From: Blastocatellia bacterium
GTDB lineage: Bacteria > Acidobacteriota > Blastocatellia > RBC074
Length of the DNA: 64,000 nucleotides
Assembly (NCBI GenBank): GCA_043736395.1
Contig: JAYTCQ010000354.1
Coordinates: forward strand, 3,723-67,722
Direction of reading: 5' to 3'
A model generated the notes under the pieces. The model did no database searches. It was not told where the DNA came from and worked only from the letters and a program-made list of their open reading frames with translations. Positions 6,675 through 56,645 of the stretch are shown piece by piece. The translations under genes were made by a program, and so were the position numbers. How positions within the stretch are numbered: position 1 is the stretch's first letter; the number at the start of each line of letters is the position of its first letter.

Positions 6675-8300
6675 TTAGTTTCCGTTCAGTGAAAAGGCGT
6701 AGAACTTGTTGTTCCCCGTGTAGCCCGGTATGCCCAGATGGGCGTACCCGGCCCCCCAGAACACTGTGCCGTTCACGATGGTGGCCCCGGCGTTCACGGA
6801 TGATCCCCCGATAAAGTTCCAAAGGATATTTCCTGTGGCGGCATTCAACGCAAACATAGTTGGAGTGCTCGCATCGCCTGCCATGGAGGCTGCATACACG
6901 ACTCCATTGGCCACGGACATGGGGCCGAGGTCAATTGCGCCGTTGGGGTCTGGTCTGTGCCAGAGAATCACGCCCGTAGCAGGATCAAGCGCAGCCCAGG
7001 AACCCGCATAACCGCCTGCCGGGGAAGGAAGACCATAAAAATTAGCGAGCTGCACATAGATTCGCTTGCCATCCGTTGCTGATCCCCATTCCATGCCGCC
7101 TAAAGAAGACCCCGGTCCAACCTGCGTTTGCCACAGTGTGTCACCGGTCTTTGGATCAAGTGCGAAGTAGATGCCGCTTTTCTGCCCCGCGCCGAGAATC
7201 GTCTTAGGCCCCTTGGAGGTTTGGTATGTGATTAAGTTTGGGGCAGAGGCGAAATCGTAGTCAGGGCCAGAATTGGTTGGACAATTCGTAAACGGTGGGA
7301 TAAAACAGGCCACGTTCCAGTCGTCACTGCCGTCTATCACACCAACGGCCGTCTGATTCCACGTTACAAACTTCTTTGCCCATTTCAGCTTACCGTTCCC
7401 CGTATCCAGCGCAATGACCGAATCCACGTAATTGTCGGGAGCATTGCACGAGGCCGCGTTGCCTCCTTGAGCAATACAGTCCCCATAGTTCGTGCCTGGG
7501 ATACTCGATTTAGCTTCGGGTTTCGGATGGCTGTAGTTGTTTCCGGTACTGACAAAGATCGTGTTGTTGTTTGCGTCCACAACCGGATTGCTGCCCCAGA
7601 CGCCGCCGCCACTGTATCCTTGGGGAACAGTATAGGTCTGCCATTTAATCTTGCCGGTGGCAGCATTGACAGCAACCACACTGCCTCTGGCCTTACAGCA
7701 CTGGAAGGCCGGATTAAAACCTGCGATGCCTTCTTCCAACGATGCCACACCCGTATATACAGTACCGCCGACCACCGTCGGGGAAGTTGTAATGAGCGCA
7801 AAGGGATCATTCGCTGGCGATTCCAGTTGTGTTTTCCAGACCAATGCTCCTGTCGTTGCATTGATTGCCAGCAACCAGGCTCCTTCCTGGGTGCCGAGAT
7901 ACAACGTGCCATTCACCACGGCTGGGGTGGTACGGGAGTGCGTGATTCCAGGCAAGCCGTAATCGGAAAGCTGATGCGACCAAAGCGCGTGCCCATTAGC
8001 AGTATTCAACGCAAACAGATTGCCGCCCCAGTCGGGGAAATAGGCAACACCATTCACGACAGCGGCGCGGGCTGACACATCGCCTCCAGTAGTAAATGTC
8101 CACTTCGGTAGCAGTTGACTCACGTTAGCAGTTGAGATGGTCGTTTCCGTCGCATTGGTCGCGGTATTCGACGCATTTTGCCCAAACATAGGCCAATCGG
8201 CAGTCTTTGGTTGAGCGATTGCTGCCCCAAAGCTGCATAACATTAAGAATCCGGCGATGAACCTTATTGAGTGTTCACGAGAACGTAGAAGGTTGTTCAT
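6675..8300 (-). CDS. Secreted PQQ-like beta-propeller repeat protein.
   Basis: Signal peptide; repeated '...G.(V/L)YA.....G.L.ALNA.TG..LW' blades (e.g. 'NLFALNTANGHALW', 'LLAINATTGALVW', 'VVAVNAATGKIKW', 'MFALNAATGNILW'). Confidence 0.6.
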   Translation of the reverse strand: MNNLLRSREHSIRFIAGFLMLCSFGAAIAQPKTADWPMFGQNASNTATNATETTISTANVSQLLPKWTFTTGGDVSARAAVVNGVAYFPDWGGNLFALNTANGHALWSHQLSDYGLPGITHSRTTPAVVNGTLYLGTQEGAWLLAINATTGALVWKTQLESPANDPFALITTSPTVVGGTVYTGVASLEEGIAGFNPAFQCCKARGSVVAVNAATGKIKWQTYTVPQGYSGGGVWGSNPVVDANNNTIFVSTGNNYSHPKPEAKSSIPGTNYGDCIAQGGNAASCNAPDNYVDSVIALDTGNGKLKWAKKFVTWNQTAVGVIDGSDDWNVACFIPPFTNCPTNSGPDYDFASAPNLITYQTSKGPKTILGAGQKSGIYFALDPKTGDTLWQTQVGPGSSLGGMEWGSATDGKRIYVQLANFYGLPSPAGGYAGSWAALDPATGVILWHRPDPNGAIDLGPMSVANGVVYAASMAGDASTPTMFALNAATGNILWNFIGGSSVNAGATIVNGTVFWGAGYAHLGIPGYTGNNKFYAFSLNGN

Positions 8301-29007: not shown

Positions 29008-29337
29008 TTATGCTGTTGCACTATTTTTTTGCAGAAGGGCTTCAAGCCTTTCCATGCGCTCCTCAATTTTCGTGAGAGTGCTCGCGTCGGCAGGCGGTAA
29101 TGATTTTTGCGCACTAAAAATAGGATGATTCACCCACCAGTCCATTCCCATTTCCTGGGCTTTATCAACGGAGCAAATCACCAGGCGAATTTGAATGGTA
29201 AGCAGTTCAACATCCGCCAAATTTACTTTTATGTCACCGGCAATCACGATGCCTTTGTCCAGAACACGTTCCAGAACATCAGCGAGAGTTGAACTGTTGA
29301 CGGCGTGCGTCATTGTACTATTTCGTGGTTGTATCAT
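29008..29337 (-). CDS. gvpJ: Gas vesicle protein, GvpA/J/M family (GvpJ-like with C-terminal extension).
   Basis: 'LADVLERVLDKGIVIAGDIKVNLADVELLTIQIRLVICSV' hallmark GvpA-family core; GGAG RBS. Confidence 0.8.
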   Translation of the reverse strand: MIQPRNSTMTHAVNSSTLADVLERVLDKGIVIAGDIKVNLADVELLTIQIRLVICSVDKAQEMGMDWWVNHPIFSAQKSLPPADASTLTKIEERMERLEALLQKNSATA

Positions 29338-29360
29338 TTTTTCTCCTGCACCTTTTGAGG

Positions 29361-29723
29361 CTAAAGCAATTTTCCGAGTGGTCCCAAATCCAGATTGAGG
29401 TCTTCTGGTTGTAATCCAAATTCCAAACGCAGCTTGTCAATTTCCTGCGTCTGCCGCATCAACGCTACGCCAAGGCGTTCAATACTTTCATCGTCTAATG
29501 TTTCCGATTCGATGCGCCGAATGGCTTGTCGTTCTAACAATTCATGCAAAAGCTTGATGATCGTTAACGCCAATCGTCCCAGCCCATTTTTCACATTTTT
29601 TTCGTCAAGTTCCAATCGTGAATTGCTGCCCAGACCCGAAAATAAATTCTTATCTGCCTGCAAAATACGAGCAAAGTCGCTAACAGTATCGGCGGTAGCA
29701 ATTGATGATATTTCAGAATTCAT
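29361..29723 (-). CDS. gvpK: Gas vesicle protein K.
   Basis: 'GLGRLALTIIKLLHELLERQAIRRIE' conserved GvpK core. Confidence 0.8.
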   Translation of the reverse strand: MNSEISSIATADTVSDFARILQADKNLFSGLGSNSRLELDEKNVKNGLGRLALTIIKLLHELLERQAIRRIESETLDDESIERLGVALMRQTQEIDKLRLEFGLQPEDLNLDLGPLGKLL

Positions 29724-29735
29724 TTGTCTTTTCCT

Positions 29736-29969
29736 TTACTCAATGGTTGATTGCACCTTTAAGGCTCGACCACCTTCAACTGAAGTCAGAACCAGTTGTA
29801 ATCCCAAGTAAATCAAATCTACATTCGCGACTGAAATTGTGACTTCGCCCACCACGACTGCGCCTTTATTCAATACACGATCAAGCACTTCGCACAGTGA
29901 AACATTTCCCTGCTCGTTCAGTGCTAAATTCGAAGCCAAAGCCGTTGTGTTGTAATTTTCAAAATTCAT
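29736..29969 (-). CDS. Small GvpA-family protein (GvpS/GvpM-like second structural homolog).
   Basis: 'SLCEVLDRVLNKGAVVVGEVTISVANVDLIYLGLQLVLTSVE'; its start abuts the ArsA-like stop codon. Confidence 0.7.
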   Translation of the reverse strand: MNFENYNTTALASNLALNEQGNVSLCEVLDRVLNKGAVVVGEVTISVANVDLIYLGLQLVLTSVEGGRALKVQSTIE

Positions 29970-31913
29970 TTATCGCCCCGCCGTTCGAACCATTTCGTAT
30001 TGATAAAGTGCTTTTCCCAATTCGCCAAGTTTTGACAAGCCGCGCAATTCACCCTGACGCGGAATGACGGCTTGCGGAATTCTTGGGAATGACACTTGAA
30101 ACTTCGTCTTAACAATCGCCTCGCGTGCGGCTAATGCATGGCACAAAGTGCAATCCTGTTGCGGTGTGGTCAGGTTAATAAAAATTCCTCCCACCGTGAT
30201 TTTCATTTGCTCGCACGATGCCAGCAAATCTCGTGTTTCGGCGTACGCCACTTCGGTTGGAATGCTCACGACAGAAATTCGCGCCTTGGTTCCATCAGCT
30301 AACAAAGTGCGTAATTTCTTAAGGTTTTTCGACATTTCTACTAATAACTGTGAGAGTCGCGGCAGGCGCAGCATGTTGCGATACTTCAGGAAAACACCAA
30401 AAAAAGCCTTCAACCATTGATCTATCAAAGTGGGCATTTCCAGCAAACGGATTAAATGTCCGGTAGGAGCCGTGTCGAGAACTACCACATCGTATTTCCC
30501 TGATTGATGCAGCTCAATCACGCGCAACAACGCCATCACTTCATCCAGTCCCGGCGGAGCCAGATCAATCATTCGTTCCATGACTTCGCGGTCAAAAGTG
30601 AAGTCGAGGTTTTGCATCGCAGCACTCAGGAATTTTTTCAGATCGTGGGCGTATTCTTTTTGCAAAACTTCAAATTCTGCATTCGCGTTAATTTCGAGAA
30701 CGCTCAAATTTGGGGTCACTGCTACGATTTCTGCGCCGATAGGTAGCGCAAAACAATCTGCCAATGAATGCGCCGGATCCGTCGAACATAGCAAAACTTT
30801 TTTGCCTTCTGTTTGTGCAAGTCTCATGGCTGTTGCACACGCCAGTGTAGTCTTTCCGACTCCGCCTTTCCCCGCAAAAAATAACAGGTTGGCTTTCGGC
30901 ACAGGTACGTTGCTGAAGGTGGGAAAATCATTAACCGAAGCCTTCACGCTCACCACCTCCGGCATCAATGTTAGCGGTTCCACGTCATCCCAAAAATGTT
31001 CGAGTGAATTCACTCCTCGCATTTCTTCCGGCTGCAATTCTGAGCGCCAGAAATTATATTCTTCATAACTTTGCAGCATTGCGCGAATTTCAGAATTTTG
31101 ACGCGCGTACGCTTCACGACAAGTCGCACAATCATTGTGTGGAAATAACTGATTGACGACGATCTCACTTACCGGGATTTGCAGGCGTTGTAAGGCCGTG
31201 AGTAAATCTTTTGTCTCATTGATGCTCAAAGCTTCTGCCAGCATTACTGGTACGAAGCGACACAGCTGTACATCACACAATAAGGCTTCCAGATTTTTGA
31301 CAGAGGAAGTGATCGTCAACAAAAATTGATCTAGTTCATCGCCGTAATAATTGCCACTGAACAATTTTTTCATGTAGCGATTTTTGGCTAACAGCGCATC
31401 CAGCATTCCTAACCAGCGATGCAATAATTCAGGCATTCCAAGCAATCGCAGCGTGTGCCCAGTTGGCGCAGTGTCTACAATCACGCAATCATAATTTTCA
31501 GCCGAAACCCATTCTGAGATTTCCAGAAATGCCATCAATTCATCTAAGCCAGGCAACGAAAGTTCCAGAAATTGATTGATGTCTGAATCGTCCAGAAACG
31601 TTCCGCGCTTGGCAATTTCGCGCAAATGTTCGGCGTGAAGTGCTTTGAATTTTGTCAGACATTCCTGTGCGTTGAGTTCAATGATCGTCAAATTTGACGG
31701 GATCATGCTCGCCTGTTCTCCCAATCCATCCATCAAAGAATGCGCTGGATCGGATGAAGCAATCAGGTATTTTTTTTCAGGAAAAGTTTTTGCGAGATAC
31801 AGCGCAGTCGCCAAAGCAGACGTAGTTTTCCCAACTCCACCTTTGCCACCAAAAAGCAGTAGGTGTAAATTTTGATCGTTGAGAAATGCAGGGCGCATTG
31901 GCTGATTAATCAT
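29970..31913 (-). CDS. Tandem two-domain ArsA/Get3-family P-loop ATPase embedded in the gvp cluster.
   Basis: Two halves, each with 'GGKGGVGKTT' deviant Walker A (LLLFGGKGGVGKTTSA; LLFFAGKGGVGKTTLA) and 'DTAPTGH' switch motifs. Each half carries a CxxC pair (DCATC; DCTLC) in the position of metal/client-binding Cys in Get3/ArsA. Confidence 0.8.
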   Translation of the reverse strand: MINQPMRPAFLNDQNLHLLLFGGKGGVGKTTSALATALYLAKTFPEKKYLIASSDPAHSLMDGLGEQASMIPSNLTIIELNAQECLTKFKALHAEHLREIAKRGTFLDDSDINQFLELSLPGLDELMAFLEISEWVSAENYDCVIVDTAPTGHTLRLLGMPELLHRWLGMLDALLAKNRYMKKLFSGNYYGDELDQFLLTITSSVKNLEALLCDVQLCRFVPVMLAEALSINETKDLLTALQRLQIPVSEIVVNQLFPHNDCATCREAYARQNSEIRAMLQSYEEYNFWRSELQPEEMRGVNSLEHFWDDVEPLTLMPEVVSVKASVNDFPTFSNVPVPKANLLFFAGKGGVGKTTLACATAMRLAQTEGKKVLLCSTDPAHSLADCFALPIGAEIVAVTPNLSVLEINANAEFEVLQKEYAHDLKKFLSAAMQNLDFTFDREVMERMIDLAPPGLDEVMALLRVIELHQSGKYDVVVLDTAPTGHLIRLLEMPTLIDQWLKAFFGVFLKYRNMLRLPRLSQLLVEMSKNLKKLRTLLADGTKARISVVSIPTEVAYAETRDLLASCEQMKITVGGIFINLTTPQQDCTLCHALAAREAIVKTKFQVSFPRIPQAVIPRQGELRGLSKLGELGKALYQYEMVRTAGR

Positions 31914-31931
31914 ATTTTGCGCTCATCAAAA

Positions 31932-32333
31932 TCATTCTTCATCACTGTCATCTTCATCTTCTTCATTTTCTTCGTCGTCATCGTCTTCTACCTCTTCATC
32001 CTCTTCATCACTGTCGTCTTCGTCTTCATCGTCGTCCTCATCGTCATCGTCACCATCATCTTCGTCTTCGTCATCGTCGTCCTCTTCATCGCCCTCATCA
32101 TTCGCCGCAGACTCTTCCAATGCGCTCAATCGCTCTAACAATACTGCTTCCTGTTCATCAAATTCGTCTTCGGTGATTTGTCCTGTTTCGAGCATCATGT
32201 ACAGCTCGCTCAGCGCAGTAGTAATTTGCTCAGAGGCGTTGGTTATTTCCTGCTCTGCCGCATTGCGGATTTCTCCCAGCAGCCAAAAAAAGCCGTGCAT
32301 GGGAGCCAGAAAAATGTCATCAACTAAAAACAC
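31932..32333 (-). CDS. gvpG: Gas vesicle protein G with a ~55-residue poly-Asp/Glu C-terminal tail.
   Basis: 'FLAPMHGFFWLLGEI...ITEDEFDEQEAVLLERL' fits the GvpG pattern (LL.P..G..W.GE ... I.EEEF..E..LL). Predicted GTG start (alternative in-frame ATG 11 codons later). Tail 'DEGDEEDDDDEDEDDGDDDDEDDDEDEDDSDEEDEEVEDDDDEENEEDEDDSDEE'. Confidence 0.65.
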   Translation of the reverse strand: MFLVDDIFLAPMHGFFWLLGEIRNAAEQEITNASEQITTALSELYMMLETGQITEDEFDEQEAVLLERLSALEESAANDEGDEEDDDDEDEDDGDDDDEDDDEDEDDSDEEDEEVEDDDDEENEEDEDDSDEE

Positions 32334-32362
32334 AAAAAACTTCTCGACGATTTCACAAACAA

Positions 32363-33127
32363 CTAAAATTCCAGGGCGACTTCGACAAAGTTATACGGCG
32401 CCCACGGCCCGTTAAAATCAAAGGCAAAGTTGTCATCAAACAATTCCGCTGCCGCATAAACCTGTTGCTCAAAGTTTGCTAACGAAGACCGATCCACCAG
32501 GCAAACCAGATTCATCACTTCGCGTTCCGTCCGGCAACGATTCACTTTGATTTCCGCGCAGGAATTCGTGAGTGCGTCCTCGACCTTCTCCGTGAACTCT
32601 TCCCTATCACTCGCATGCAATTGCTCAAAGAGGCGTCCAACAGCCAATTTGTCATCCTGACGCGGTTCACCTTCGCCACTGAATAAACGATCCCGCGCAG
32701 CCAGTAATTCAGGATGTAAATTGACGAAATATTCAAAAATATTCGGCACGTCCCACGTGACGCGAACGCCCATTTCTACTTTGTCTGCCACGCGTTCTAA
32801 TTGCGAAGCGAGTGCCTCGGAATTTTTTGTGAGTACTTCTTCGACGGCTTCCTGTGAATTCGCAGCGACGCCGAAAGCCATTGGTAAAACGGACAAATTT
32901 TCAGCTAATAATTTTTTCAGGACTTCCTGATGTGCGGCGAGATTTTTTCGCTGCGGCAGGATTTTTTCGCCGGAAGAATCACTCACCACAGCGGCGAATT
33001 TGCCGTTGGAAATTGTGTAGACGTGCTGACCGTTTAGACCACAATTTCCTAATTCCAGGTGGTCTTGGGCGGCGATGACGGCGTAAAGATATTTAGAACT
33101 GCGAGCGGCGGCGGCTTTGACTGACAT
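32363..33127 (-). CDS. Gas vesicle protein GvpF/L family (paralog 1).
   Basis: 'KYLYAVIAA' N-terminus and C-terminal 'NGPWAPYNFV' hallmark of GvpF/L; start at internal ATG with GGAG. Confidence 0.8.
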   Translation of the reverse strand: MSVKAAAARSSKYLYAVIAAQDHLELGNCGLNGQHVYTISNGKFAAVVSDSSGEKILPQRKNLAAHQEVLKKLLAENLSVLPMAFGVAANSQEAVEEVLTKNSEALASQLERVADKVEMGVRVTWDVPNIFEYFVNLHPELLAARDRLFSGEGEPRQDDKLAVGRLFEQLHASDREEFTEKVEDALTNSCAEIKVNRCRTEREVMNLVCLVDRSSLANFEQQVYAAAELFDDNFAFDFNGPWAPYNFVEVALEF

Positions 33128-33291
33128 GGTTTTGGGTCTCCTGTAAAACCTGCCACACAAACGGTCAGAACAAAGCGAAAACAAGGAAGGAAAACTGAAT
33201 GAATCAAAAGTTGCTCTGTTACTGAATCGCGGTGGCTCGGCGAATTTGGGTTACTGCTACTAACAACAATTTCTGTTGTTACGATCAAAAA

Positions 33292-33504
33292 TTATTTTGC
33301 TTCGGTGGCATTTCGGACTTGAGCATTCCATCGCTCAATCAACCACCAACGCCTTATTTCACGGTGCTGTAAATCAATTTCAGCATTACTATTTTCCTGC
33401 TCAGCCAGATGATCCTGCGGGACACCCGTACTCGTAGGAACCGCGCGAAACGATTTGCGATGACGATTGGTTTTGATGTGCGATGCGGTTTTTAATTTCA
33501 GCAT
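33292..33504 (-). CDS. Hypothetical small Arg/Trp-rich protein inside the gvp cluster.
   Basis: ATG start; translationally coupled to the upstream small gene (stop 33507). No known motifs. Confidence 0.3.
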   Translation of the reverse strand: MLKLKTASHIKTNRHRKSFRAVPTSTGVPQDHLAEQENSNAEIDLQHREIRRWWLIERWNAQVRNATEAK

Positions 33505-33506
33505 GA

Positions 33507-33830
33507 TTAGTATTTCAGCTTGAATGAATTATTTGCAGTGGCACTCACGCTTTTGGCGATTTGCTTGCTTCCTTCGACTGGAAGATCGTAATCGGCTGCC
33601 GCCAATTGTTTGAGGATGACAGCTTTTTCCGCATCAATTTCGCGGAAGCGTGTCCGCAATTCCTGCAATCGTTCCATCGCGCTGTCTTTTTCTTTGTTGC
33701 GACGGACTTTCTCCATTTCAAGTGCCGTCAATTTCATAAATGCTTTGTATGGACTAAAGCTACTTTCGTTACGATTGGAATGTGTACGAATGCTTTGTAA
33801 CCCGCGTAGCGTACTTTGACGTGATTTCAT
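33507..33830 (-). CDS. Hypothetical small coiled-coil protein inside the gvp cluster.
   Basis: Strong AGGAGG RBS; heptad-like 'MERLQELRTRFREIDAEKAVILKQL'. Confidence 0.45.
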   Translation of the reverse strand: MKSRQSTLRGLQSIRTHSNRNESSFSPYKAFMKLTALEMEKVRRNKEKDSAMERLQELRTRFREIDAEKAVILKQLAAADYDLPVEGSKQIAKSVSATANNSFKLKY

Positions 33831-33843
33831 TTCAGCTTTCCTC

Positions 33844-34800
33844 CTAACGACAAAATTTATGAATTAAAACATCAACTGTTTTGGGAGTAATGGTTTTCGA
33901 AGCTTTCTCGCCTTTGCCACCATCACGGCTTAGCACATCACGACAAACCCAACGGAACAATTCGTCATTGATCCGCGCATGCGAATCACGTGCAGCAATC
34001 ACGCGTGCAATCGCAATCGCAGCGCGAATTGTTGGATACGTTTGATCGTTACCGAGTGCTCGCAGTTCGTCTATGATGTTAATGATGCTGGTGGCGTCTT
34101 CGAGTTCAATGCCTGACTTCGCCATCGTGACAGCGATTTCTGTTTCGCGGTCATAATGTCCCAAATCAATGGTAATCATTCGATCTAACAACGCATCCTG
34201 CGTTTTATGGACACCGGCGTATTCTTCAGGATTTGAGGTGAAAATTGCGTGAAATTCTGGATGAACATTCATGTAGCCTTCGCCTGAGCGACGCAGCTTC
34301 GGCAAGTTCAAAATGCGCTCCGACAATACGCTGAGCAAAGCATTATTGGCTTCGGCTGGCGAGCGATTAAATTCATCGTAAATTAAAGTGTTACCATCTC
34401 GACAGGCCATCGTCAGGCGGCTGTCTACCCAATAACTTTTGACTTCATCCTGCGTTTTCACGACAGAATGAATAAAATTATCCACTAACGTAGAGCGACG
34501 ATAACCGGAGTCACGACCAATTAAATCAGCCGAACCGAATTCATCATCACCGTGAATCAGTGTGACCGGACGCGCTAATTGCGCGGCAACATGAAAAGCA
34601 AGCGTCGTCTTACCTGTTCCCGCCGGTCCGGCAAAATGTACCGGAAATCCAGCTTGCAAATAAGCGAGTGCTCGCTCAACGACGTGCGCAATTTGTGGTG
34701 TACTCACAAAACCTGAACTCGGTTCAAGTTGAAGATTTTCGTTCTCAGACTTCGTCCTTATCAAATCAGGAGAAGTTGCTGTAGAGGCGGATGCAGACAT
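33844..34800 (-). CDS. gvpN: Gas vesicle protein N (AAA+ ATPase of CbbQ/NirQ/GvpN family).
   Basis: Walker A 'GPAGTGKTT'; 'TLIYDEFNRS' Walker B region; length and order typical of GvpN. Confidence 0.85.
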   Translation of the reverse strand: MSASASTATSPDLIRTKSENENLQLEPSSGFVSTPQIAHVVERALAYLQAGFPVHFAGPAGTGKTTLAFHVAAQLARPVTLIHGDDEFGSADLIGRDSGYRRSTLVDNFIHSVVKTQDEVKSYWVDSRLTMACRDGNTLIYDEFNRSPAEANNALLSVLSERILNLPKLRRSGEGYMNVHPEFHAIFTSNPEEYAGVHKTQDALLDRMITIDLGHYDRETEIAVTMAKSGIELEDATSIINIIDELRALGNDQTYPTIRAAIAIARVIAARDSHARINDELFRWVCRDVLSRDGGKGEKASKTITPKTVDVLIHKFCR

Positions 34801-34855
34801 GCGTGGTTCTCTTGGTTGTTCTTTTCAGGCAAATATCCTGCAAAAAAATTTAGGC

Positions 34856-35605
34856 TTAGCCGGCTTTTGCGGCAGCCAATTCATGTTCAAATTCGCGGCG
34901 AAGCTTTGCGATAGTTTCGCCCTGAACATCTTCGATATGCTTGGAGACGACTTCAGCGGCCATTCTGCTGGCTTGTTCAGCGGCAGCGCGGCTAGCTTCT
35001 TCCAACCGCTTTCCAGCTTCGTTGGTTACGCGTTCGACGGCTTGCTCAACTTTGCGCGCTTTTTCAGCTCTGAGCACGGCATCAGCTTTCGCTTCTTCTA
35101 CAGCTTTCGAAGCTAACGTTGCTCTGGTTTCCGAAAGGGATTTTCCTTTAGTACGTGGCGCAGCGGCGGCAGCTTTGGCAACTGGCGCAGTTACAGCAAC
35201 TGGTCTGCTTGTGGCAGGCAAGGCAGGCTGATTCCACATCGCGCGCGCACCTGCCAGATCTTCCTGATTTTCTTCGCGGATGGCAGAAACTTCACTCTTC
35301 AATTCAGAGACAAATTCTTGCCGATCTTCTTTCGTAGTGACCGCCATTTCTGCGTGAGCAACTCGAAAGTCTTCCTGCATCGTCGCGACCTCACCAACGA
35401 GATTGGTGACGAATTCGACCCGCTCCGATTTTGATTTTTCAGCCATCTCGGCATGGTCAACACGAAAGCCTTCTTGCATCGTGACGACTTCTGCTTTTAA
35501 TTCCTGATTTTCAGCCGACAGTCTTTCGATTAACTCTCCGCGTTCGACACGCAAGTCGGCCATTTCTTCAACCAGCCGTTTCATATCATCGGTCAAGCGT
35601 CCCAT
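34856..35605 (-). CDS. GvpC-like gas-vesicle outer-layer protein candidate (33-residue tandem repeats plus Ala/Lys-rich coiled-coil tail).
   Basis: Two adjacent 33-aa repeats 'EVVTMQEGFRVDHAEMAEKSKSERVEFVTNLVG' / 'EVATMQEDFRVAHAEMAVTTKEDRQEFVSELKS'. Sits immediately downstream of gvpA, as gvpC does in cyanobacteria. Confidence 0.5.
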   Translation of the reverse strand: MGRLTDDMKRLVEEMADLRVERGELIERLSAENQELKAEVVTMQEGFRVDHAEMAEKSKSERVEFVTNLVGEVATMQEDFRVAHAEMAVTTKEDRQEFVSELKSEVSAIREENQEDLAGARAMWNQPALPATSRPVAVTAPVAKAAAAAPRTKGKSLSETRATLASKAVEEAKADAVLRAEKARKVEQAVERVTNEAGKRLEEASRAAAEQASRMAAEVVSKHIEDVQGETIAKLRREFEHELAAAKAG

Positions 35606-35659
35606 TCGATTTGCTCCTTAACTTGCACTGATTCAGGCAAAATCTTTGCTGCGTAAATT

Positions 35660-35702
35660 AGTTAAAAAAATTCCATTGACGGGAAGGAGCAAAGCTCCCT
35701 CG
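35660..35702 (-). terminator. Possible partial terminator/attenuator between gvpA and the gvpC-like gene.
   Basis: On the minus strand: GAGGGAGC-uuug-GCUCCuUC hairpin followed about 10 nt later by UUUUUUU; non-canonical spacing. Confidence 0.3.
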
Positions 35703-35733
35703 CCGACAAAGGAAATAAAAACGTTCAGTCGTT

Positions 35734-35952
35734 TTAAGCCGGTGCTGCTGCGCTGGAAGTTAATCCAATAGCTTCGGCGTACTTTAAATAAGTTTCGACC
35801 GAGGCAATCACGACACGTGCTTCAACTGACAGTAATTCAATACCGACGAGCGAGACCTTAACCCAAGCATCAATGACGATACCTTTATCAAGAATACGAT
35901 CTACGACTTCTGCCAGACTCGATGAATCCGTTGACTTCGCTATTTTAGCCAT
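35734..35952 (-). CDS. gvpA: Gas vesicle structural protein A.
   Basis: '[64 protein letters not shown]', near-canonical GvpA. Start at internal ATG with AAGGAG RBS; the ORF-track N-extension is rejected. Confidence 0.9.
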
Positions 35953-36145
35953 ATTTTCTCCTTTATGATTTTCATACTCCGGGTGGGAAAAGCTGAACAC
36001 ATCAGAAGGATGAGAAAGTCATCCCAACCACAGCTTGCTAAATCCTACTTGCAGATTTAGTGCCACAATCGGAAGGACTACAAAATATTTTTTCTGGGAG
36101 TTTTTTTGATAGCGTTGATAGACAAATAACTATTACTTCTATGTG

Positions 36146-36862
36146 CTATTTGAGTTTAGGCAGAAGCATCGCAGCAGGTAAATTTTCTGTCATCACAAAG
36201 TTGTAAGGAGGCCACGGCCCACTCGCTGAAAGCTTAACAGATTGCGGCACTATCAGGTGTCGCAACTTGTCATTCCAGGCTTCAATTTCCGTGCGTCGAA
36301 GCAAAAAATATTGCGAACATAACCAGCCATCTTCGAACCTTTTTACTTCTGTTTTTTGACGTTTGAATAACCCATCCAAAGGCGCACAGACCTCTGTCAT
36401 CATTGCCTGAAATTCGGTTGAAGGATCTTCGTAATGCCGCCGCCGTGCCGCCAGATATGCTCGACCTGAAGACACGGGTTCCGGTTCACTGACAACAATA
36501 TTCCCAATTGCTTGCGGTACAGAAATCAAAAATCGAAGCCCCATTTCAACACAATCTTCCAGTTCATCAAGGAGCGTTTCATACTGCGCCTGATGCTTCG
36601 TCAGGAAATTCATGAGTTGCGCTTCGTTATCAAACAGACAGCCGTACCGCATCGGAATCACTGTGTGTTCACGATGAAAATCTGCCACGACTTTTTCAAA
36701 TGATAATAATTGCTCAATGCTTGGAGTCGCAGAATTTTCACAGGCAGAAATAATCGCCGTCAGATTATTATTCGAGATAAAAAATACTTCTGTAGACACA
36801 GAATTCACGGAATGGATTTTCTTTTCAGAGTTGCGCAACACAGCGTAGAGCAGCAGTTTCAT
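36146..36862 (-). CDS. Gas vesicle protein GvpF/L family (paralog 2).
   Basis: 'MKLLLYAVLR' ... C-terminal 'SGPWPPYNFV'; ATGA overlap with the upstream paralog. Confidence 0.8.
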   Translation of the reverse strand: MKLLLYAVLRNSEKKIHSVNSVSTEVFFISNNNLTAIISACENSATPSIEQLLSFEKVVADFHREHTVIPMRYGCLFDNEAQLMNFLTKHQAQYETLLDELEDCVEMGLRFLISVPQAIGNIVVSEPEPVSSGRAYLAARRRHYEDPSTEFQAMMTEVCAPLDGLFKRQKTEVKRFEDGWLCSQYFLLRRTEIEAWNDKLRHLIVPQSVKLSASGPWPPYNFVMTENLPAAMLLPKLK

Positions 36863-37671
36863 GCACTTTGCTCCTTGGCTAAATTTGGAGAAAAACTATA
36901 CGGCGGCCACGCTCCGGACATCGTAAAAACAAAGCCTTTTTCTGCGTATTTCGAATTGATGCTATCAACGCGCAGTCGAAAATCTTCGCGAGATTCTTGT
37001 GGAATTAAAAATGCCCAATTCAAAATTGCTTCAAGTTCGTCGTCAGAATTCGTAACTTTTCGTGCTCGAAAATCAACGGCGGATTGACTCAGCTCCTGCG
37101 CAATTTGTACGCAGATTTCTTGTATCCATTGATTTAATTCCTGCTCTACCGCCGCCTTGATTTTTTGCTCTTGAAAATAGCGCAGCCCCGGAGAAATTGC
37201 GCCGAGCTGTTCGTCCTGTTCAGCTAATTTTTGATCCAACAATCGCTGTCTGGCTGCGACACGATTGATGCTTCCCTTGACTGAAAATTCCTGCTTGTTA
37301 TTGATGTGATGCAGGAATCCAAAAATTGTTCCGTGTTGTGTTTGAAGAAAATCTGTGACGCCGGAAGCCGTAGAAAATAACGTACCAAATCGCGCTGGTA
37401 AAACGGGAGCTTGACGCAGTTGCTCTTCGATGACTGCTTCGTGTTGCAAGGCTCGCGGAGCAATCCAGTTCAAATCTTTCATCAATTCTTCCGCTTCCGC
37501 ACCAATGAAATCAGTCAGTGGAACTTCGCTAACAATTGCGGTCAACGAATTGTATTGAAGAGCGAATAAAGGGCTGCCATCATCAAAGCCCACGCCTTGA
37601 ACTTCCGGCAGCTCTTTCGTCAGAGAAATACAAAAAAGATAAATTGCTTTGGAGGGTTGGTTGTTCGTCAT
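36859..37671 (-). CDS. Gas vesicle protein GvpF/L family (paralog 3).
   Basis: 'KAIYLFCISL' ... C-terminal 'SGAWPPYSFS'. Confidence 0.8.
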   Translation of the reverse strand: MTNNQPSKAIYLFCISLTKELPEVQGVGFDDGSPLFALQYNSLTAIVSEVPLTDFIGAEAEELMKDLNWIAPRALQHEAVIEEQLRQAPVLPARFGTLFSTASGVTDFLQTQHGTIFGFLHHINNKQEFSVKGSINRVAARQRLLDQKLAEQDEQLGAISPGLRYFQEQKIKAAVEQELNQWIQEICVQIAQELSQSAVDFRARKVTNSDDELEAILNWAFLIPQESREDFRLRVDSINSKYAEKGFVFTMSGAWPPYSFSPNLAKEQSA

Positions 37672-37747
37672 AAAATTCAGTTACAAAATGCAGCGGGTAC
37701 TGCACAAGTAACGAGAGTAATTTCTTCCGCGAAGATGGATGAATTTG

Positions 37748-47403: not shown

Positions 47404-48057
47404 TTACTGTTTGAGCTGTGCCTGAATGTCATCCTTACTGGTTCCTTTTTTTACCCAGTTAGGAACTTCATTCAAGCGTTCGCTAAGGCCCAGAACAAAG
47501 GTGCAATTTGCATCGCCGCGCGCTACACATGAAATTTCATGTGCCGCTATTGCAGAATTACTGGCGTGTGAAAACATGCCCGCTAATGCACCTGCTGCCA
47601 AATGATCAATTGGCATTCCTTTGGCGTCGCGTCCGCTTTTGGCAAACACTTCCGCGAAGGGCGTATCCGAAACCTGAGCGTAAATCAAACCTTGTTTGAT
47701 GTTGTTCAGTTCAAAGCTCAACTTGCCCCAGCCTTGCGTTCCCCAGGCTTCAACCAGCGAAGCATGAACATGTGCGGTTGGTAATTCTTCCAACGCTGAA
47801 CCGTAATACGCACTCAGCTCTTTTTCGTAGCGCTGCATTTGTCGGCGTCCCCACCATTCGCCGCATTTGTAGAGCACAACCGGCCACGCCTGCCCGCATT
47901 CATCTTCGAGGCTTTCCAATAAGCCCAGCGTAAATTCAAACGGGAATGCCACCAGGCGCGTACCGCTGCGTGAAGTGATGACGCCTTTTCCAGCGTCTAA
48001 ATCAACGTAGTCAAGATGCGAAAAATAATTCGCTTTCATGGCTGTAGCCAGACTCAT
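47404..48057 (-). CDS. V4R (4-vinyl-reductase-like) domain protein, paralog A.
   Basis: C-terminal 'EISCVARGDANCTFVLG' matches the V4R 'E..C.A.GD..C.F' signature. Start at internal ATG with GGGAGGAA RBS. Paralog of 49234-49899 (the N-terminal 'KANYFSHLDYVDLDAGKG' aligns with 'KHNYYTREDFFNFASDKG'). Confidence 0.6.
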   Translation of the reverse strand: MSLATAMKANYFSHLDYVDLDAGKGVITSRSGTRLVAFPFEFTLGLLESLEDECGQAWPVVLYKCGEWWGRRQMQRYEKELSAYYGSALEELPTAHVHASLVEAWGTQGWGKLSFELNNIKQGLIYAQVSDTPFAEVFAKSGRDAKGMPIDHLAAGALAGMFSHASNSAIAAHEISCVARGDANCTFVLGLSERLNEVPNWVKKGTSKDDIQAQLKQ

Positions 48058-48077: not shown

Positions 48078-48581
48078 TTAATTGGATTGCCCTGCGGCTG
48101 CGGCCTGTTCTTCCGAACACAGCACATCAATCACGACACTGACATATTGATTGATCTCTTCTGCATCTTCGGCACTCATTTCCTGACGTACCAAATCCTG
48201 CACGGTTTCATAAGTGCTGCGGACAAAGTTCGTATCAATGTCCATGGACATGAAGATCGTTTTCAACCAATACAACAACTTTTGACGAAGCATTTCCGGA
48301 TCGCCATTGACCATCGCCAAGGCGCAGTACCGTAAAACCAGCGTCACATCACGCATACCTTTTTCGGCAGCTTGAGGATGTTTTTGCGGAAAGTCAGGGA
48401 ATTTTTCAAATGACTTATCCACCGTTGCCGCCACGATATTTTTTTCCTTCTCTTCCAATCGTTGCATGATGGCGAGGCGACGTTCATACGCACGTGCAGT
48501 CTCGATGATGGTGTTATTTTCTTCAGGGGTGAAGTACCGGCCTTCGGCACTTCGCATGATGTCAGCAATTTGTCTATTCAT
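48078..48581 (-). CDS. Phycobiliprotein-fold globin-like protein (phycobilisome-protein family homolog; BBAG-like).
   Basis: 'MNRQIADIMRSAEGRYFTPEENNTIIETARAYERRLAIMQRLEEKEKNIVAATVDKSFEKFPDF...MRDVTLVLRYCALAMVNGDPEMLRQ...SAEDAEEINQYVSVVIDVL' aligns along its whole length with allophycocyanin-alpha-type sequences ('ARYLSPGELDRIKSF...GERRLRIAQTL.ENRERIVKQA...LF.K.PD...CLRDLDYYLRLVTY...GD...SAEDAAEAGSYFDFVI'). Confidence 0.7.
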   Translation of the reverse strand: MNRQIADIMRSAEGRYFTPEENNTIIETARAYERRLAIMQRLEEKEKNIVAATVDKSFEKFPDFPQKHPQAAEKGMRDVTLVLRYCALAMVNGDPEMLRQKLLYWLKTIFMSMDIDTNFVRSTYETVQDLVRQEMSAEDAEEINQYVSVVIDVLCSEEQAAAAGQSN

Positions 48582-48598
48582 AGATGGCAAAGTCCTTT

Positions 48599-49213
48599 CT
48601 AGGAGCGAGTGTTTCCGCCGTCACTGACAAGAAATTCTTCCAGCAATCCGGCAATATTTAATCCATTTGTATTGATTGAAGGGCTAGGCCATTTGGTCTT
48701 AATTGACTCAAGTGTGTAGCCTTCCTGAGATTTCGATTCTGTCATTGCGGCTGGAGCAGGCGCTTCTTCCACACCATTTCCGCTCAGCCAAGCCAAAAGA
48801 TTTTTCCAGGGTTGCACGGCAAGGCTTAATTGAAGTGCAACACGAACGGTTGAGGTCTCAACATCAGTTGCAGTCGCGAGCGCCGGAGCTGCTACAATTT
48901 CTTCGACAGGTTCTTGATACCCCGACAGAAATTGAAGTGTATCTTTCCAGGGTCTGACCGCTAATGAAAGAGATTTATTATTGATTTTCTTGATGGCCAC
49001 ATCGGTCGCAGCCGCTGAAGAAGCTTCTATGCCAGGTGCAATATCTACACTCAAAGCATGTGCCGGAGCGCCCGCCAGAGCTGCTCCGTCGAGCGAATCA
49101 GATGATAGTGCGGCATCTTTGTTTTTCGCATTATTTTCAGCGGATTCATTACTGCCTTCGCCGACAAAATCTTGCAGGAATGAACCTAGTGTTTGCGTGG
49201 GAACTTTTTGCAT
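48599..49213 (-). CDS. Hypothetical protein with two ~33-aa internal repeats (L.LAV.PWK..L.FLSG).
   Basis: 'SLSLAVRPWKDTLQFLSGYQEPVEEIVAAPALA' / 'QLSLAVQPWKNLLAWLSGNGVEEAPAPAA'; strong GGAGGTGA RBS. Confidence 0.4.
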   Translation of the reverse strand: MQKVPTQTLGSFLQDFVGEGSNESAENNAKNKDAALSSDSLDGAALAGAPAHALSVDIAPGIEASSAAATDVAIKKINNKSLSLAVRPWKDTLQFLSGYQEPVEEIVAAPALATATDVETSTVRVALQLSLAVQPWKNLLAWLSGNGVEEAPAPAAMTESKSQEGYTLESIKTKWPSPSINTNGLNIAGLLEEFLVSDGGNTRS

Positions 49214-49233: not shown

Positions 49234-49899
49234 TCACTCTGAAATTTTTTCGATGATTTCGGTCGCGGAAGCGCCTTCACGCAGCCAGAATTCTGCCGCA
49301 TCAATACGATTGCCTGAACCAATAATGAATTTGCAGAAATCCTCGCCCATCGCGTAACACTGCACTTCGATGCCGGAGAGATCGCGCTGTGTCAAATACG
49401 TGAAGACACCTGCGAACATTCCTGCGTAAACGTGGCAAACTGGTTTGCCAACATTGCCCAGGCTTTTCGCAACGGCACTATCGAACAGGTCAATAAAAAT
49501 CATGCCTTGCTTGCGCTGCGAAGTGTTGACCTTCCAAGCTCCCCAGCCTTCAGCCTGTAACGGCCACCACCAGGTTTCCAGAAAGAAATTCGCGTTCATT
49601 TCGCTGAGCTTTTTCCCGAATTCCGCTTCAACCATTGGCACGAAGGTTTTCATGTCCTCCAAGCCCCAGCGAAATCCTGCCTTATACATAATCATCGCCG
49701 AAGCGTCGCCGACTTCTTCTTCCAATCCTTGCTGCAATCCAACGACGAAATCTTCTGTCGCCAGAAAAGTACGCAGACCAGCGCGTGTGTGCACAGTGCC
49801 TTTGTCAGAAGCAAAGTTGAAAAAATCTTCGCGGGTATAATAATTATGTTTGATCGGCTGCTGGCCGATGATTACTTCTTGAGCGGTCATTTCGATCAT
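49234..49899 (-). CDS. V4R domain protein, paralog B.
   Basis: C-terminal 'EVQCYAMGEDFCKFIIG' V4R signature; AAGGAG RBS before internal ATG (MIEMTAQEV). Confidence 0.6.
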   Translation of the reverse strand: MIEMTAQEVIIGQQPIKHNYYTREDFFNFASDKGTVHTRAGLRTFLATEDFVVGLQQGLEEEVGDASAMIMYKAGFRWGLEDMKTFVPMVEAEFGKKLSEMNANFFLETWWWPLQAEGWGAWKVNTSQRKQGMIFIDLFDSAVAKSLGNVGKPVCHVYAGMFAGVFTYLTQRDLSGIEVQCYAMGEDFCKFIIGSGNRIDAAEFWLREGASATEIIEKISE

Positions 49900-49942
49900 T
49901 TGCAAAACTCCTTTTGTTATCCACTAAAAAATGTGCGCGGGA

Positions 49943-50428
49943 TTACATAATGCGCTCAGACGCCTGCAACATTTCGAGCACATCCGTCTCGATATTTTTG
50001 AGCGACATGATCACACTGCGCGTAATGATTTTGCCCTGTGGAATCAAGGCGACGCCTGTCACCGGATGAATAATTGTTTCATCCGCACGGCGTCCGATTA
50101 ATGATTCCAGACTGGCGAGCGACTCCAGATAAATCCCTTGTGGGACTTCGACGACACAACCATCGGCAATGATTTTCGCCTGGCAGGCAAGCCGGGAAGC
50201 GGCGGTCGTGCCGGAAATAAGTGACAAGGTTGAGATTTCACGTGGCGTTTGTGGCGATAGCGAGCCATTCCCGTCCAGCACTTTAATGTGGCAGGTGGCA
50301 CATAATCCTTTGCCTCCGCAAACTGCTTTGACGCGACCCTGTGATTGCGCCAGTAACACAGAAATTACATTGGCGCGCGTGAGAACATCTATGTCTGTTC
50401 CAATTGGTTCGATACGGATATTTTTCAT
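49943..50428 (-). CDS. Plant-type [2Fe-2S] ferredoxin with ~70-aa C-terminal extension.
   Basis: 'CGGKGLCATCHIKV ... ACQAKI' Cys ligand pattern (C-x4-C-x2-C ... C); AGGAGG RBS; ATGA overlap with the upstream gene. Confidence 0.75.
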   Translation of the reverse strand: MKNIRIEPIGTDIDVLTRANVISVLLAQSQGRVKAVCGGKGLCATCHIKVLDGNGSLSPQTPREISTLSLISGTTAASRLACQAKIIADGCVVEVPQGIYLESLASLESLIGRRADETIIHPVTGVALIPQGKIITRSVIMSLKNIETDVLEMLQASERIM

Positions 50429-50928
50429 GCTCCGCCTCCTTTAAAAAGATAAAAATTCAGTGCTTCACGTTCAATTGTTTCGGTTGGTTCTGGTGCTTCC
50501 GGCACTTCGTCTTTTTCGCCAGCCAAAATCTGCTGAAGGTAAAGATTCTTAACCAAAAAAGTTGACCTGCCAGTGGGGATTCCATCTTTGGTGAGGAGCG
50601 AAGCGGCTTGGTGATTAAAAGGAATAATTAATTGTGTGGGCAGGTCTACAGCTACCAATAAACTCAGCGAAAGAAACTCTCTTGCCCATTGCGAGGCTAA
50701 CTGGAAATCCTGCGGCTTAGCTGCCAGCTCTGGTTCGCTAACTTGAATCGTTGCCTCTTTAGACACAGAAAAAAGGTCACGCCAGACATCTGGTCGCGTC
50801 TGCCTCCAATTGTTGACGACCGAACTCCGCCCCAAATAGCCAGCAGCCATGAGCGAAATTTCGCTCAACCCTGCGGCAATCTTATCCAGCGTATTAAACT
50901 GTAAAGGGAGATATTCCATCTGTGGCAT
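50425..50928 (-). CDS. Hypothetical protein, first gene of the bilin/gvp locus.
   Basis: 167 aa; no recognisable motif; its stop overlaps the ferredoxin start. Confidence 0.35.
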   Translation of the reverse strand: MPQMEYLPLQFNTLDKIAAGLSEISLMAAGYLGRSSVVNNWRQTRPDVWRDLFSVSKEATIQVSEPELAAKPQDFQLASQWAREFLSLSLLVAVDLPTQLIIPFNHQAASLLTKDGIPTGRSTFLVKNLYLQQILAGEKDEVPEAPEPTETIEREALNFYLFKGGGA

Positions 50929-52583: not shown

Positions 52584-53435
52584 ATGGCAAAAAGTTCGCC
52601 TATGAATTCCAAATCGCAAGCCTCACTCACCTCTGATCAGGTCTTAGAAAAATTTCGCATCTCTTCTGAACCTTATTACTTAAATGTCAAAGAAGAAGCG
52701 AATATTTTCGAAAAAGCCTATAAATCCAAGCTGCCCGTGATGCTGAAAGGGCCAACCGGTTGCGGCAAAACGCGCTTTGTTCAGGCGATGGCGTACCGCT
52801 TGGGATTACCGCTCATCACCGTCGCGTGTCACGAAGATTTATCCGCAACTGATTTAATCGGACGCTTTTTGCTGGAAGGCGAAGAGACTGTTTGGCACGA
52901 TGGCCCATTAACTACCGCCGTACGTCACGGCGCGATTTGTTACCTTGATGAAGTCGTCGAAGCCCGCAAAGACACGATCGTTTGCATTCATCCATTAACC
53001 GATGACCGTCGTGTTTTGCCCGTCGAAAAAATCGGTGAATTACTCGGCGCGCCCGATAATTTTATGCTGGTGATTTCATACAATCCCGGCTATCAAAGCG
53101 TCCTGAAAGATTTGAAGCAATCCACCCGACAAAGATTTATTTCGCTGGAATTCGATTACCCACCCGCTGAAGCCGAAGCGCAGATTGTCGCCCGTGAAGG
53201 TGGCGTCCAGGAAAGTATTGCACGTGATCTGGTGAAAATTGGGGAGAAAGTTCGCAACCTGAAAGGTCACGGATTAGAAGAAGGCGTCTCGACGCGCCTG
53301 CTGGTGTACGCTGCGCAAATGATTTCCGCTGGCGTAGATGCAATCACCGCCTGCGAAATCGCAATCGCCAGCCCCATCACCGATGATTCCGAACTGCAAC
53401 GCGGCATCCGTGAAATTGTCACAACTGTAGTGTAA
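52584..53435 (+). CDS. CbbQ/NirQ/NorQ/GvpN-family (MoxR-like) AAA+ ATPase.
   Basis: Walker A 'GPTGCGKT'; '[11 protein letters not shown]' Walker B; ~280 aa, typical of CbbQ. Confidence 0.8.
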
Positions 53436-53513
53436 AAATGCAGGGAGCAGGGCTAAGGGAACAAGGAAATATTAATCCTTTTTCTCTCGCCCTGCTCCCT
53501 AATCCCTTTCTTT

Positions 53514-56645
<3,132 letters not shown>

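Follow-up and report, generated by a model that had tools for sequence, protein, structure and literature searches.

We describe a putative bilin-binding globin encoded in a 64,000-nucleotide stretch of bacterial DNA (contig JAYTCQ010000354.1, positions 3,723 to 67,722, hereafter the window). The gene is located at 48078..48581 on the minus strand, and its product of 167 amino acids has the phycobiliprotein fold. It is very probably a bilin-biosynthesis-associated globin of the BBAG-1 type, placed in a gene cluster with a ferredoxin-dependent bilin reductase (FDBR) of the pre-1 (pre-PcyA) type. Because the Cys residue for bilin attachment is replaced by Gly75, the bilin is predicted to be bound non-covalently, a prediction to which we give a somewhat better than even chance. 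For the statement as a whole, a BBAG-1-type globin in a pre-1 cluster binding bilin non-covalently, we estimate a probability of about 0.58.

The interval 48078-48581 is exactly one coding sequence, including the stop codon, on the minus strand, while the plus-strand translation is full of stops. An earlier note on this DNA, made from the sequence alone, had given this interval, which proved to be the complete coding sequence, but it left the strand unstated. In the list of open reading frames (ORFs) the gene is entered as 48078..48590 (minus strand) with a TTG start. Translation from the ATG at 48581 yields the 167-residue protein beginning with MNRQIADIMR. The MNRQI start is common to all homologues, and the gene callers on four independent metagenome contigs chose the same ATG. 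All the motifs quoted in the earlier note, YERRLAIMQRLEEKEK, LVLRYCALAMVNGD and MSAEDAEEINQYVSVVIDVLCSEE, were found in this protein.

Against the Pfam profile PF00502 the globin gave E=1.4e-25 and 90.5 bits (gathering cut-off 22.2), the match covering profile positions 8-154 of 155. In the PDB, 77 phycobiliprotein chains, mostly of allophycocyanin (APC) alpha, matched at E<=0.01 over residues ~10-155, and the best sequence match was 9i1r_C. At the level of sequence, the likeness to phycobiliproteins is far above chance. An AlphaFold2 model built on a 102-sequence alignment had a mean pLDDT (predicted local distance difference test) of 95.1 and a pTM (predicted template modelling score) of 0.88, with helices at residues 3-11, 19-60, 71-92, 95-112, 117-134 and 137-154. 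The top 50 PDB matches of this model in Foldseek were all APC, phycocyanin or phycoerythrocyanin chains, with TM scores of 0.75-0.81 over 155-168 columns (~158 of the 167 residues aligned) and an identity to APC chains of 22-27%. Both the N-terminal X-Y helical hairpin and the globin-like helical fold are present in the model. The phycobiliprotein fold claimed in the earlier note was thus recovered both by the search over the whole profile and by the comparison of the model with APC, which gave a phycobiliprotein and not a different helical fold.

The identical 167-residue globin is encoded in at least four independent metagenome assemblies. The ratio of nonsynonymous to synonymous substitution rates (dN/dS) was 0.10 against a relative with Gly at the attachment site and 0.15 against a relative with Cys. 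Since both ratios are low, the gene is, as judged from these comparisons, under purifying selection and not decaying. A pseudogene was ruled out by the ratios together with the identical protein in the assemblies.

When the globin was aligned with APC alpha and with other BBAGs, the column of the attachment Cys, the first position of the CXRD motif, was occupied by Gly75. The globin reads E-K-G-M-R-D, in place of T-C-L-R-D in APC alpha (2v8a_A) and T-C-I-R-D in BBAG relatives. The absence of the canonical Cys, as noted earlier, therefore stands, but the substitute is Gly75 and not Met as then proposed, for Met76 corresponds to X of CXRD and is followed by the retained Arg77 and Asp78. This Arg-Asp pair hydrogen-bonds bilin in phycobiliproteins (PMC10151467). 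Among the 102 aligned relatives Arg77 is conserved in 88% and Asp78 in 96%, both being invariant within the clade of this globin, and all the other strongly conserved family positions (R15, Y16, R35, E46, R84, Y85, D94, W105 and Y124) are kept as well. The codon at the Cys column is GGT in the window, GGC in the relative P0002 (74% identical), and TGC or TGT in the relative P0003 (70% identical) and in an Acidobacteriota homologue of 40% identity; the Cys/Gly change thus amounts to a single first-position transversion. A sequencing or assembly error at Gly75 was ruled out, because the same protein occurs in at least four assemblies and P0002 likewise has Gly.

For an estimate of how common such members are, a profile search of 1.84 billion representative sequences gave 527 family members at E<=1e-3, of which the best 150 were aligned to the profile. 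The Cys column of the 215 domains in these 150 members contained C in 59, G in 40, T in 33 and A in 27, while the Arg and the Asp of the motif were present in 167/215 and 191/215, respectively. For the 129 single-domain representatives the corresponding counts were C 38, G 29, T 19 and A 18. By this count the Cys-less state is the majority in the family (~70% of representatives) and Gly is the second most common residue at the column. With Cys in no more than 38 of the 129 representatives and Gly in 29, a member without the canonical Cys is, within the aligned family, not unusual. In agreement with this, CXRD was described for only 'some' members of BBAG-1 and of BBAG-3 and does not define the group (PMC10151467). 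In a neighbour-joining tree of the globin clade the Cys column changes repeatedly, as seen from the groups {window G, P0002 G, P0003 C}, {L020 A, L022 A, P0029 G} and {L007 C, L016 C, P0022 C}, where P and L numbers denote related globins and loci, respectively. Some relatives (P0020, P0038, P0043, P0055, P0088 and P0159) are metagenomic proteins of 750-980 residues with 4-8 tandem BBAG-like globin domains, mostly without Cys, and recall the multi-domain architecture of ApcE.

The globin gene is located within a cluster of minus-strand genes separated by gaps of 11-86 nucleotides, with one overlap of 4 nucleotides. In the order of transcription, the cluster includes a small protein of 167 residues (50425..50928; no Pfam or NCBIfam match), whose stop overlaps the start of the following gene by 4 nucleotides, a 2Fe-2S ferredoxin-type Fe-S protein (49943..50428; PF00111, E=3.2e-08, TIGR02007-like), the upstream V4R paralogue V4R_b (49234..49905; PF02830, E=7.5e-19), an unannotated protein of 204 residues (48599..49213; no Pfam or NCBIfam match), the globin, the downstream V4R paralogue V4R_a (47404..48057; PF02830, E=2.4e-08; 217 residues from the ATG of the gene caller), a Ser/Thr protein kinase (45839..47317; PF00069, E=8.3e-39) with a conserved C-terminus of ~200 residues without Pfam match, an ABM-family (IsdG/HmuQ-like) protein of 102 residues (45476..45784; PF03992, E=4e-14) and the FDBR (44658..45464; PF05996, E=7.6e-26). 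The published pre-1/pre-3 clusters encode an Fe-S protein, a pair of V4R proteins belonging to different clades, either one globin or two, an FDBR and sometimes a heme oxygenase (PMC10151467). Judged by gene content, the cluster in the window is of this published pre-PcyA type. The proposal in the earlier note of a BBAG-type globin adjoining an FDBR is borne out by this published architecture, by the Pfam match, by the model and by the identity of 37% to the characterised BBAG-3 protein MBL9008307.

The gene order is conserved. Cluster-order orthologues were detected by tblastn in nine reference-genome loci (Acidobacteriota, Myxococcales, Polyangia, Bradymonadales and Nannocystis) and in the metagenome loci L016, L020 and L022; a metagenome scan based on V4R_b gave three loci. 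The FDBR gene lies 2.6 kb downstream of the globin gene on the same strand, and this linkage is kept in L007, L016 and L020. Orthologues of V4R_a at the same position are 48-79% identical in L005, L007, L016, L020 and L022 and 28-31% identical in the Myxococcales loci, while those of V4R_b are 75-96% identical in L006, L007, L016, L020 and L022 and about 50% identical in the Myxococcales loci. Since V4R_a and V4R_b are only ~28% identical to each other and far closer to their positional orthologues, they form two distinct orthologous groups. An orthologue of the ferredoxin, 43-63% identical, is present upstream of V4R_b in every locus with enough flanking sequence, and the gene after V4R_a is a kinase gene in each of the 9 genome loci that have flank, as well as in L005, L016 and L020, which places it at the same position in L005, L007-L016 and L020.

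The two family-less proteins of the cluster have counterparts elsewhere. Weak homologues of the 167-residue protein (25-31% identity) occupy the same position in L007, L016 and L021. A small, low-complexity protein between V4R_b and the globin was found in all the pre-1-type loci examined: homologues of the 204-residue protein are encoded at L005 39-620 and L006 505-1098 (42% identity), and ORFs with its motifs at L007 ~7290-7965, L016 6593-7177 and L020 1344-1838. Besides two '(P)W..L..L.G' motifs, this type of protein has a conserved C-terminal 'W(K)..ATRSP' motif. A hidden second globin was rejected for both proteins, since hhalign against the 102-sequence BBAG profile gave a probability below 1%.

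The type of the FDBR was determined from an alignment to what we take to be the sequence of Synechocystis PcyA. The window FDBR has Ala/Asn/Glu at the positions of PcyA Glu76/His88/Asp105, and in its lineage of six sequences Ala or Val is found at Glu76, Asn always at His88 and Glu at Asp105 ('GIELL'). We hold this alignment to be valid because it reproduces the published Ala/Thr/Asp/Arg of the pre-3 enzyme MBL9008304. Pre-1 enzymes are recognised by a Glu at the position of PcyA-Asp105 combined with Thr or Asn at that of PcyA-His88 (Frascogna et al. 2026, PMC13446030), and the pre-1 enzyme MCC5789364, with Ala/Asn/Glu, converts biliverdin to 3E-phytochromobilin in vitro (PMC13446030). Since BBAG numbering follows the type of the associated FDBR (PMC10151467), the globin next to a pre-1-type FDBR is very probably a BBAG-1, the pre-1 class being assigned by the catalytic-residue signatures of PMC13446030. 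The FDBR profile search returned unnamed relatives and pre-3-type sequences only. Assignment of the globin to BBAG-3 was rejected, because MBL9008304 and 30 relatives read Thr/Asp at His88/Asp105, in contrast to Asn/Glu in the window FDBR, which is only 18% identical to MBL9008304. The hallmarks of BBAG-2 (photoglobin) are RGMC (or CXQD) and a cluster of three genes in which a B12-binding protein and a pre-2 FDBR are also encoded. This type was also rejected, for the globin has neither motif and the cluster has no gene for a B12-binding domain; RGMC was found in none of the top 150 globin relatives.

In the proposed mechanism, biliverdin would be formed from heme, the enzyme being either one whose gene lies elsewhere or possibly the IsdG-like ABM protein of the cluster, and would then be reduced by the pre-1 FDBR with the clustered ferredoxin as electron donor. 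By likeness to the other pre-1 enzyme, the product would probably be 3E-phytochromobilin (3E-PPhiB). The globin would take it up in the helix-E pocket through Arg77 and Asp78, and a bilin held in this way would be exchangeable and somewhat red-shifted. The globin is taken not to be a light-harvesting antenna subunit; together with the two V4R proteins and the kinase, it would more likely act as a bilin carrier or sensor module. As to how the pigment may be held, the best model is provided by ApcE2, ApcD3 and ApcF2, three subunits without the Cys whose bilin is bound non-covalently in PDB 9I1R, with extended conjugation and red-shifted absorption (PMC12152189). They have the same fold, a small residue in place of Cys and the retained Arg-Asp, chain 9i1r_C reading A-M-R-D against G-M-R-D in the globin. 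They differ in being cyanobacterial antenna subunits, located in phycobilisome cores with partners and linkers and ~23% identical to the globin, whereas the globin is a stand-alone protein in a heterotroph-type cluster.

Several observations weigh against this reading of the locus. A canonical heme oxygenase (PF01126 type) is absent among the annotated ORFs of the 64-kb window. The active-site triad of IsdG is Asn/Trp/His; the ABM protein has Ser6/Tyr65/His75 at these positions, only the His being kept. The position of HY2-Asp256 (PcyA-Asp220) is occupied by Glu in the window FDBR and in all five relatives ('DEP' motif). Every member of BBAG-1 or BBAG-3 tested so far has CXRD, and in POZ53552, the sole BBAG-1 among them, chromophorylation was poor in spite of the Cys (PMC10151467). 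As to the heme oxygenase, it was described as 'typically' or 'sometimes' present in BBAG clusters, and is not obligatory (PMC10151467). Ser at the HY2-Asp256 position is typical of pre-1 enzymes and not universal, POZ53557 also being without it (PMC13446030). Non-covalent binding is discussed in neither of the two BBAG papers (PMC10151467, PMC13446030).

A possible though unlikely alternative is that the globin has lost its chromophore and takes part, in the apo form, in a V4R/Fe-S/kinase complex as its scaffold or regulatory subunit, the bilin being used by another protein. The attachment Cys is indeed gone, the poor chromophorylation of POZ53552 points in the same direction, and 15 of the 91 representatives without Cys at the column have no Cys anywhere, indicating that a covalent pigment is dispensable for many members. 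For an apo protein, however, one would not expect that the bilin-bonding Arg77 and Asp78 are invariant in the clade and 88-96% conserved family-wide under strong purifying selection, nor that the globin gene stays tightly linked to the FDBR gene.

A covalent bond through one of the other cysteines was also considered. The globin contains only Cys86, in helix E, and Cys155, and the bilin might be attached to either of them, as in the case of BBAG-2, in which a distinct, non-CXRD Cys motif (RGMC) still forms adducts (PMC10151467). The earlier note had pointed to a shifted Cys; the nearest one is Cys86, 11 residues C-terminal of Gly75 and aligned with Val92 of APC alpha, three helical turns beyond the attachment site. 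The three closest relatives of the globin share both Cys86 and Cys155. One of these, P0003, carries them alongside the canonical Cys, so that both should predate the loss of the canonical residue. In the 129 family representatives, the presence of Cys at column 86 does not depend on whether column 75 is Cys (10/28 versus 24/67, Fisher p=1.0), and in the globin of L020 both columns are Ala. The confidence of the model drops beyond the last helix, which is where Cys155 is located, and the RGMC motif is absent. A compensatory role of Cys86 was rejected from its distribution in the family and its presence in the Cys-bearing P0003, and the suggestion in the earlier note of a bilin differently attached at the shifted Cys found no support; covalent attachment through Cys86 or Cys155 is distinctly improbable.

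It is very improbable that the ligand is heme or some other non-bilin compound, with the globin sensing redox state or oxygen on behalf of the kinase. The fold is derived from globins, and encoded in the cluster are an Fe-S protein, an ABM protein that may be heme-related, and V4R domains, which are small-molecule-binding modules. On the other hand, no conserved His exists at the position of the proximal ligand, the sole His, H68, being located in a loop and not conserved, and all the characterised members of the clade bind bilins and not heme (PMC10151467). A role as a light-harvesting APC-like antenna subunit of a phototroph is extremely improbable: the best PDB and NCBIfam matches are APC alpha subunits, but the NCBIfam equivalog models gave 18-48 bits where the cut-offs stand at 225-279 (ApcA, 47.8 against 270), the identity to APC is 22-27% with Gly at the Cys column, no second subunit, linker, lyase or photosynthesis gene was found in the 64-kb window, the closest relatives are from metagenome-assembled genomes (MAGs) of Acidobacteriota and Myxococcales, and the BBAGs that have been characterised differ from antenna proteins in their low fluorescence yields (PMC10151467).

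Non-covalent binding of a bilin remains our preferred reading, and the source of its precursor could lie within the cluster itself. The ABM gene sits between the kinase and FDBR genes; in the pre-3 reference locus L010, a heme oxygenase gene comes right after the FDBR gene. The best NCBIfam model for the ABM protein is that of the heme-degrading HmuQ (37.3 bits, below the cut-off of 130 bits), and its PDB relatives include HmoB, IsdI, IsdG and MhuD. An ABM gene of 55% identity is present at the same position in the high-GC locus L020 (6990-7295), with the same Ser/Tyr/His reading, and a third copy is located upstream of the FDBR gene in L023 (1-192). From these sequence relationships, the ABM protein is possibly a non-canonical heme-degrading enzyme. 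The loci with ABM have Cys-less globins, i.e. Gly in the window, Ala in L020 and probably Gly in P0002, which is linked to L023 by inference from the common sample, whereas the globins of the ABM-less L007 and L016 have Cys; this comparison includes five loci that are not phylogenetically independent.

Among the closest known systems, and among the nearest relatives of the globin outside its own small clade, is MBL9008307 (our P0007), a BBAG-3 from a Myxococcales MAG, which binds phycocyanobilin (PCB), PPhiB and phycoerythrobilin (PEB) without lyase (Rockwell et al. 2023, PMC10151467; PMC13446030). The two proteins have the same length and fold, are 37% identical over 98% of the sequence, and share the N-terminus MNRQI..SAEGRY and the core RD.TLVLRY. 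The neighbourhood is also the same, with Fer2, V4R_b, globin, V4R_a, Ser/Thr kinase and FDBR. In contrast, MBL9008307 has CXRD (TCIRD) instead of GMRD, and its cluster has a pre-3 FDBR and ends with a canonical heme oxygenase, while the window has a pre-1-type FDBR and the ABM protein; the Myxococcales loci also lack the gas-vesicle genes that are present in the window.

Published pre-1 clusters (POZ53552 of Methylovulum psychrotolerans; MCC5789364 of Opitutales) share with the window FDBR the Glu at Asp105 and the Asn or Thr at His88, a likeness judged by the published descriptions. The tested BBAG-1, POZ53552, has CXRD and the window globin does not; the published clusters are described with a canonical heme oxygenase (PMC13446030), which the window lacks, and the window FDBR has Glu and not Ser at HY2-Asp256. 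This Glu of the 'DEP' motif could affect the chemistry of A-ring reduction or the stereochemistry of the product.

The gene set slr0144-slr0149 of Synechocystis has the same content, with Fd5 (slr0148) as its Fe-S protein, a pair of V4R proteins and slr0149 as its globin, and the kinase SpkG (slr0152) is encoded nearby. SpkG is reportedly involved in phosphorylation of the Fd5 ferredoxin (title of Angeleri et al. 2018). The kinase of the window parallels SpkG. The cyanobacterial BBAG clusters lack both FDBR and heme oxygenase (PMC10151467), whereas the window has an FDBR.

The globin is a fairly ordinary addition to a family and a cluster type that were published in 2023 (PMC10151467) and extended in 2026 (PMC13446030), and the definition of this family gains little from the locus. 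BBAGs have been proposed as the stock from which cyanobacterial phycobiliproteins evolved. Since three close relatives (70-74% identical) differ in having Cys or Gly at the attachment site, they form a natural test case of covalent versus non-covalent binding, and the comparison could show whether covalent attachment matters and whether non-covalent binding leads to a red shift as in ApcE2. More may be learned from the context than from the globin, for the kinase, the ABM candidate and the gas-vesicle linkage in two genomes suggest a signalling route and a buoyancy output. Neither of the two BBAG papers (PMC10151467, PMC13446030) mentions the ABM gene, the gas-vesicle linkage or a conserved kinase in pre-PcyA clusters.

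The most unusual feature of the locus is that the bilin cluster runs straight into gas-vesicle genes. The FDBR gene is followed on the same strand by genes for a giant coiled-coil protein (41100..44636; about 1171-1178 residues, no Pfam match) and an unknown protein of 209 residues, and then by a complete gas-vesicle cluster (29008..40453, minus strand; matches to PF06386, PF00741, PF05121, PF07728, PF00011 and PF02374). The latter includes genes for Hsp20, a CDC48-like AAA protein, three GvpF/L proteins, GvpA (35734-36000), a GvpN-like AAA protein, ArsA, GvpS/J-type proteins and GvpK; GvpA-family genes are located at 29008-29337 and 29736-29969, all on the minus strand. A GvpG-like ORF (31932-32333, minus strand) is 54% identical to that of L007 over the first 59 residues. 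Its C-terminal tail of ~60 residues is extremely acidic and rich in Asp and Glu. From the bilin cluster through the gvp cluster, ~24 genes run in the same direction. An orthologous GvpF-GvpG-ArsA-GvpS-GvpK-GvpJ block is located directly upstream of the BBAG cluster in locus L007 (1-3852) of an Acidobacteriota MAG, indicating a rearranged linkage. The linkage is not general: L016 shows none within 10 kb, nor does any of the Myxococcales loci. No minus-strand terminator-like site was found in the intergenic gaps between 50928 and 32363; in the promoter and terminator scan the counts were not above the shuffled expectation. A literature search for gas vesicles linked to bilin reductase or V4R gave no relevant paper. 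Based on gene positions, we regard the gas-vesicle linkage as context, and any functional link to the bilin cluster as hypothetical.

On a more speculative level, the BBAG, V4R, ferredoxin and kinase module might constitute a bilin-based sensor that controls gas vesicles, and thus buoyancy, in a non-photosynthetic, probably Acidobacteriota-like bacterium, with an exchangeable, non-covalently bound bilin whose precursor would come from the IsdG-like ABM enzyme with its atypical Ser/Tyr/His site rather than from a canonical heme oxygenase. The cue sensed could be light, or else heme, oxygen or redox state. This combination fits the ~24 co-directional genes without an intergenic terminator-like site, the rearranged gvp linkage in the Acidobacteriota MAG, and the co-occurrence of ABM and a Cys-less globin in the three assessable loci, one of them inferred; taken jointly, including the nature of the cue, it is rather improbable. 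If true, the link to buoyancy would be the first physiological role for a BBAG system outside cyanobacteria.

The N-terminal ~110 residues of the coiled-coil protein are conserved in related loci, and homologous sequences follow the FDBR gene in L007 (11456-14215), L016 (10734-12941), L019 (1264-1542) and L023 (1047-1379). A HATPase_c domain, an ATPase of the histidine-kinase type, forms the end of the L016 homologue. Long internal repeats are present in the window protein, for instance NAS.A.[LM]LSEA..AKEELQ..SDAKIESLQ, which occurs twice.

On the upstream side of the cluster, just beyond mnmA, genes for a CbbQ/NorQ-type AAA protein and a VWA-domain (CbbO/NorD-like) protein of 1043 residues are located divergently on the plus strand (52584-56645). 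The GC content is 47%, and the closest relatives of the cluster include an Acidobacteriota MAG. As a further, no more than suggestive, hint of a host of this kind, the window also encodes CarboxypepD_reg/outer membrane protein (OMP) beta-barrel proteins and an extracytoplasmic function (ECF) sigma factor of the PF07638 family, both of which are common in Acidobacteriota.

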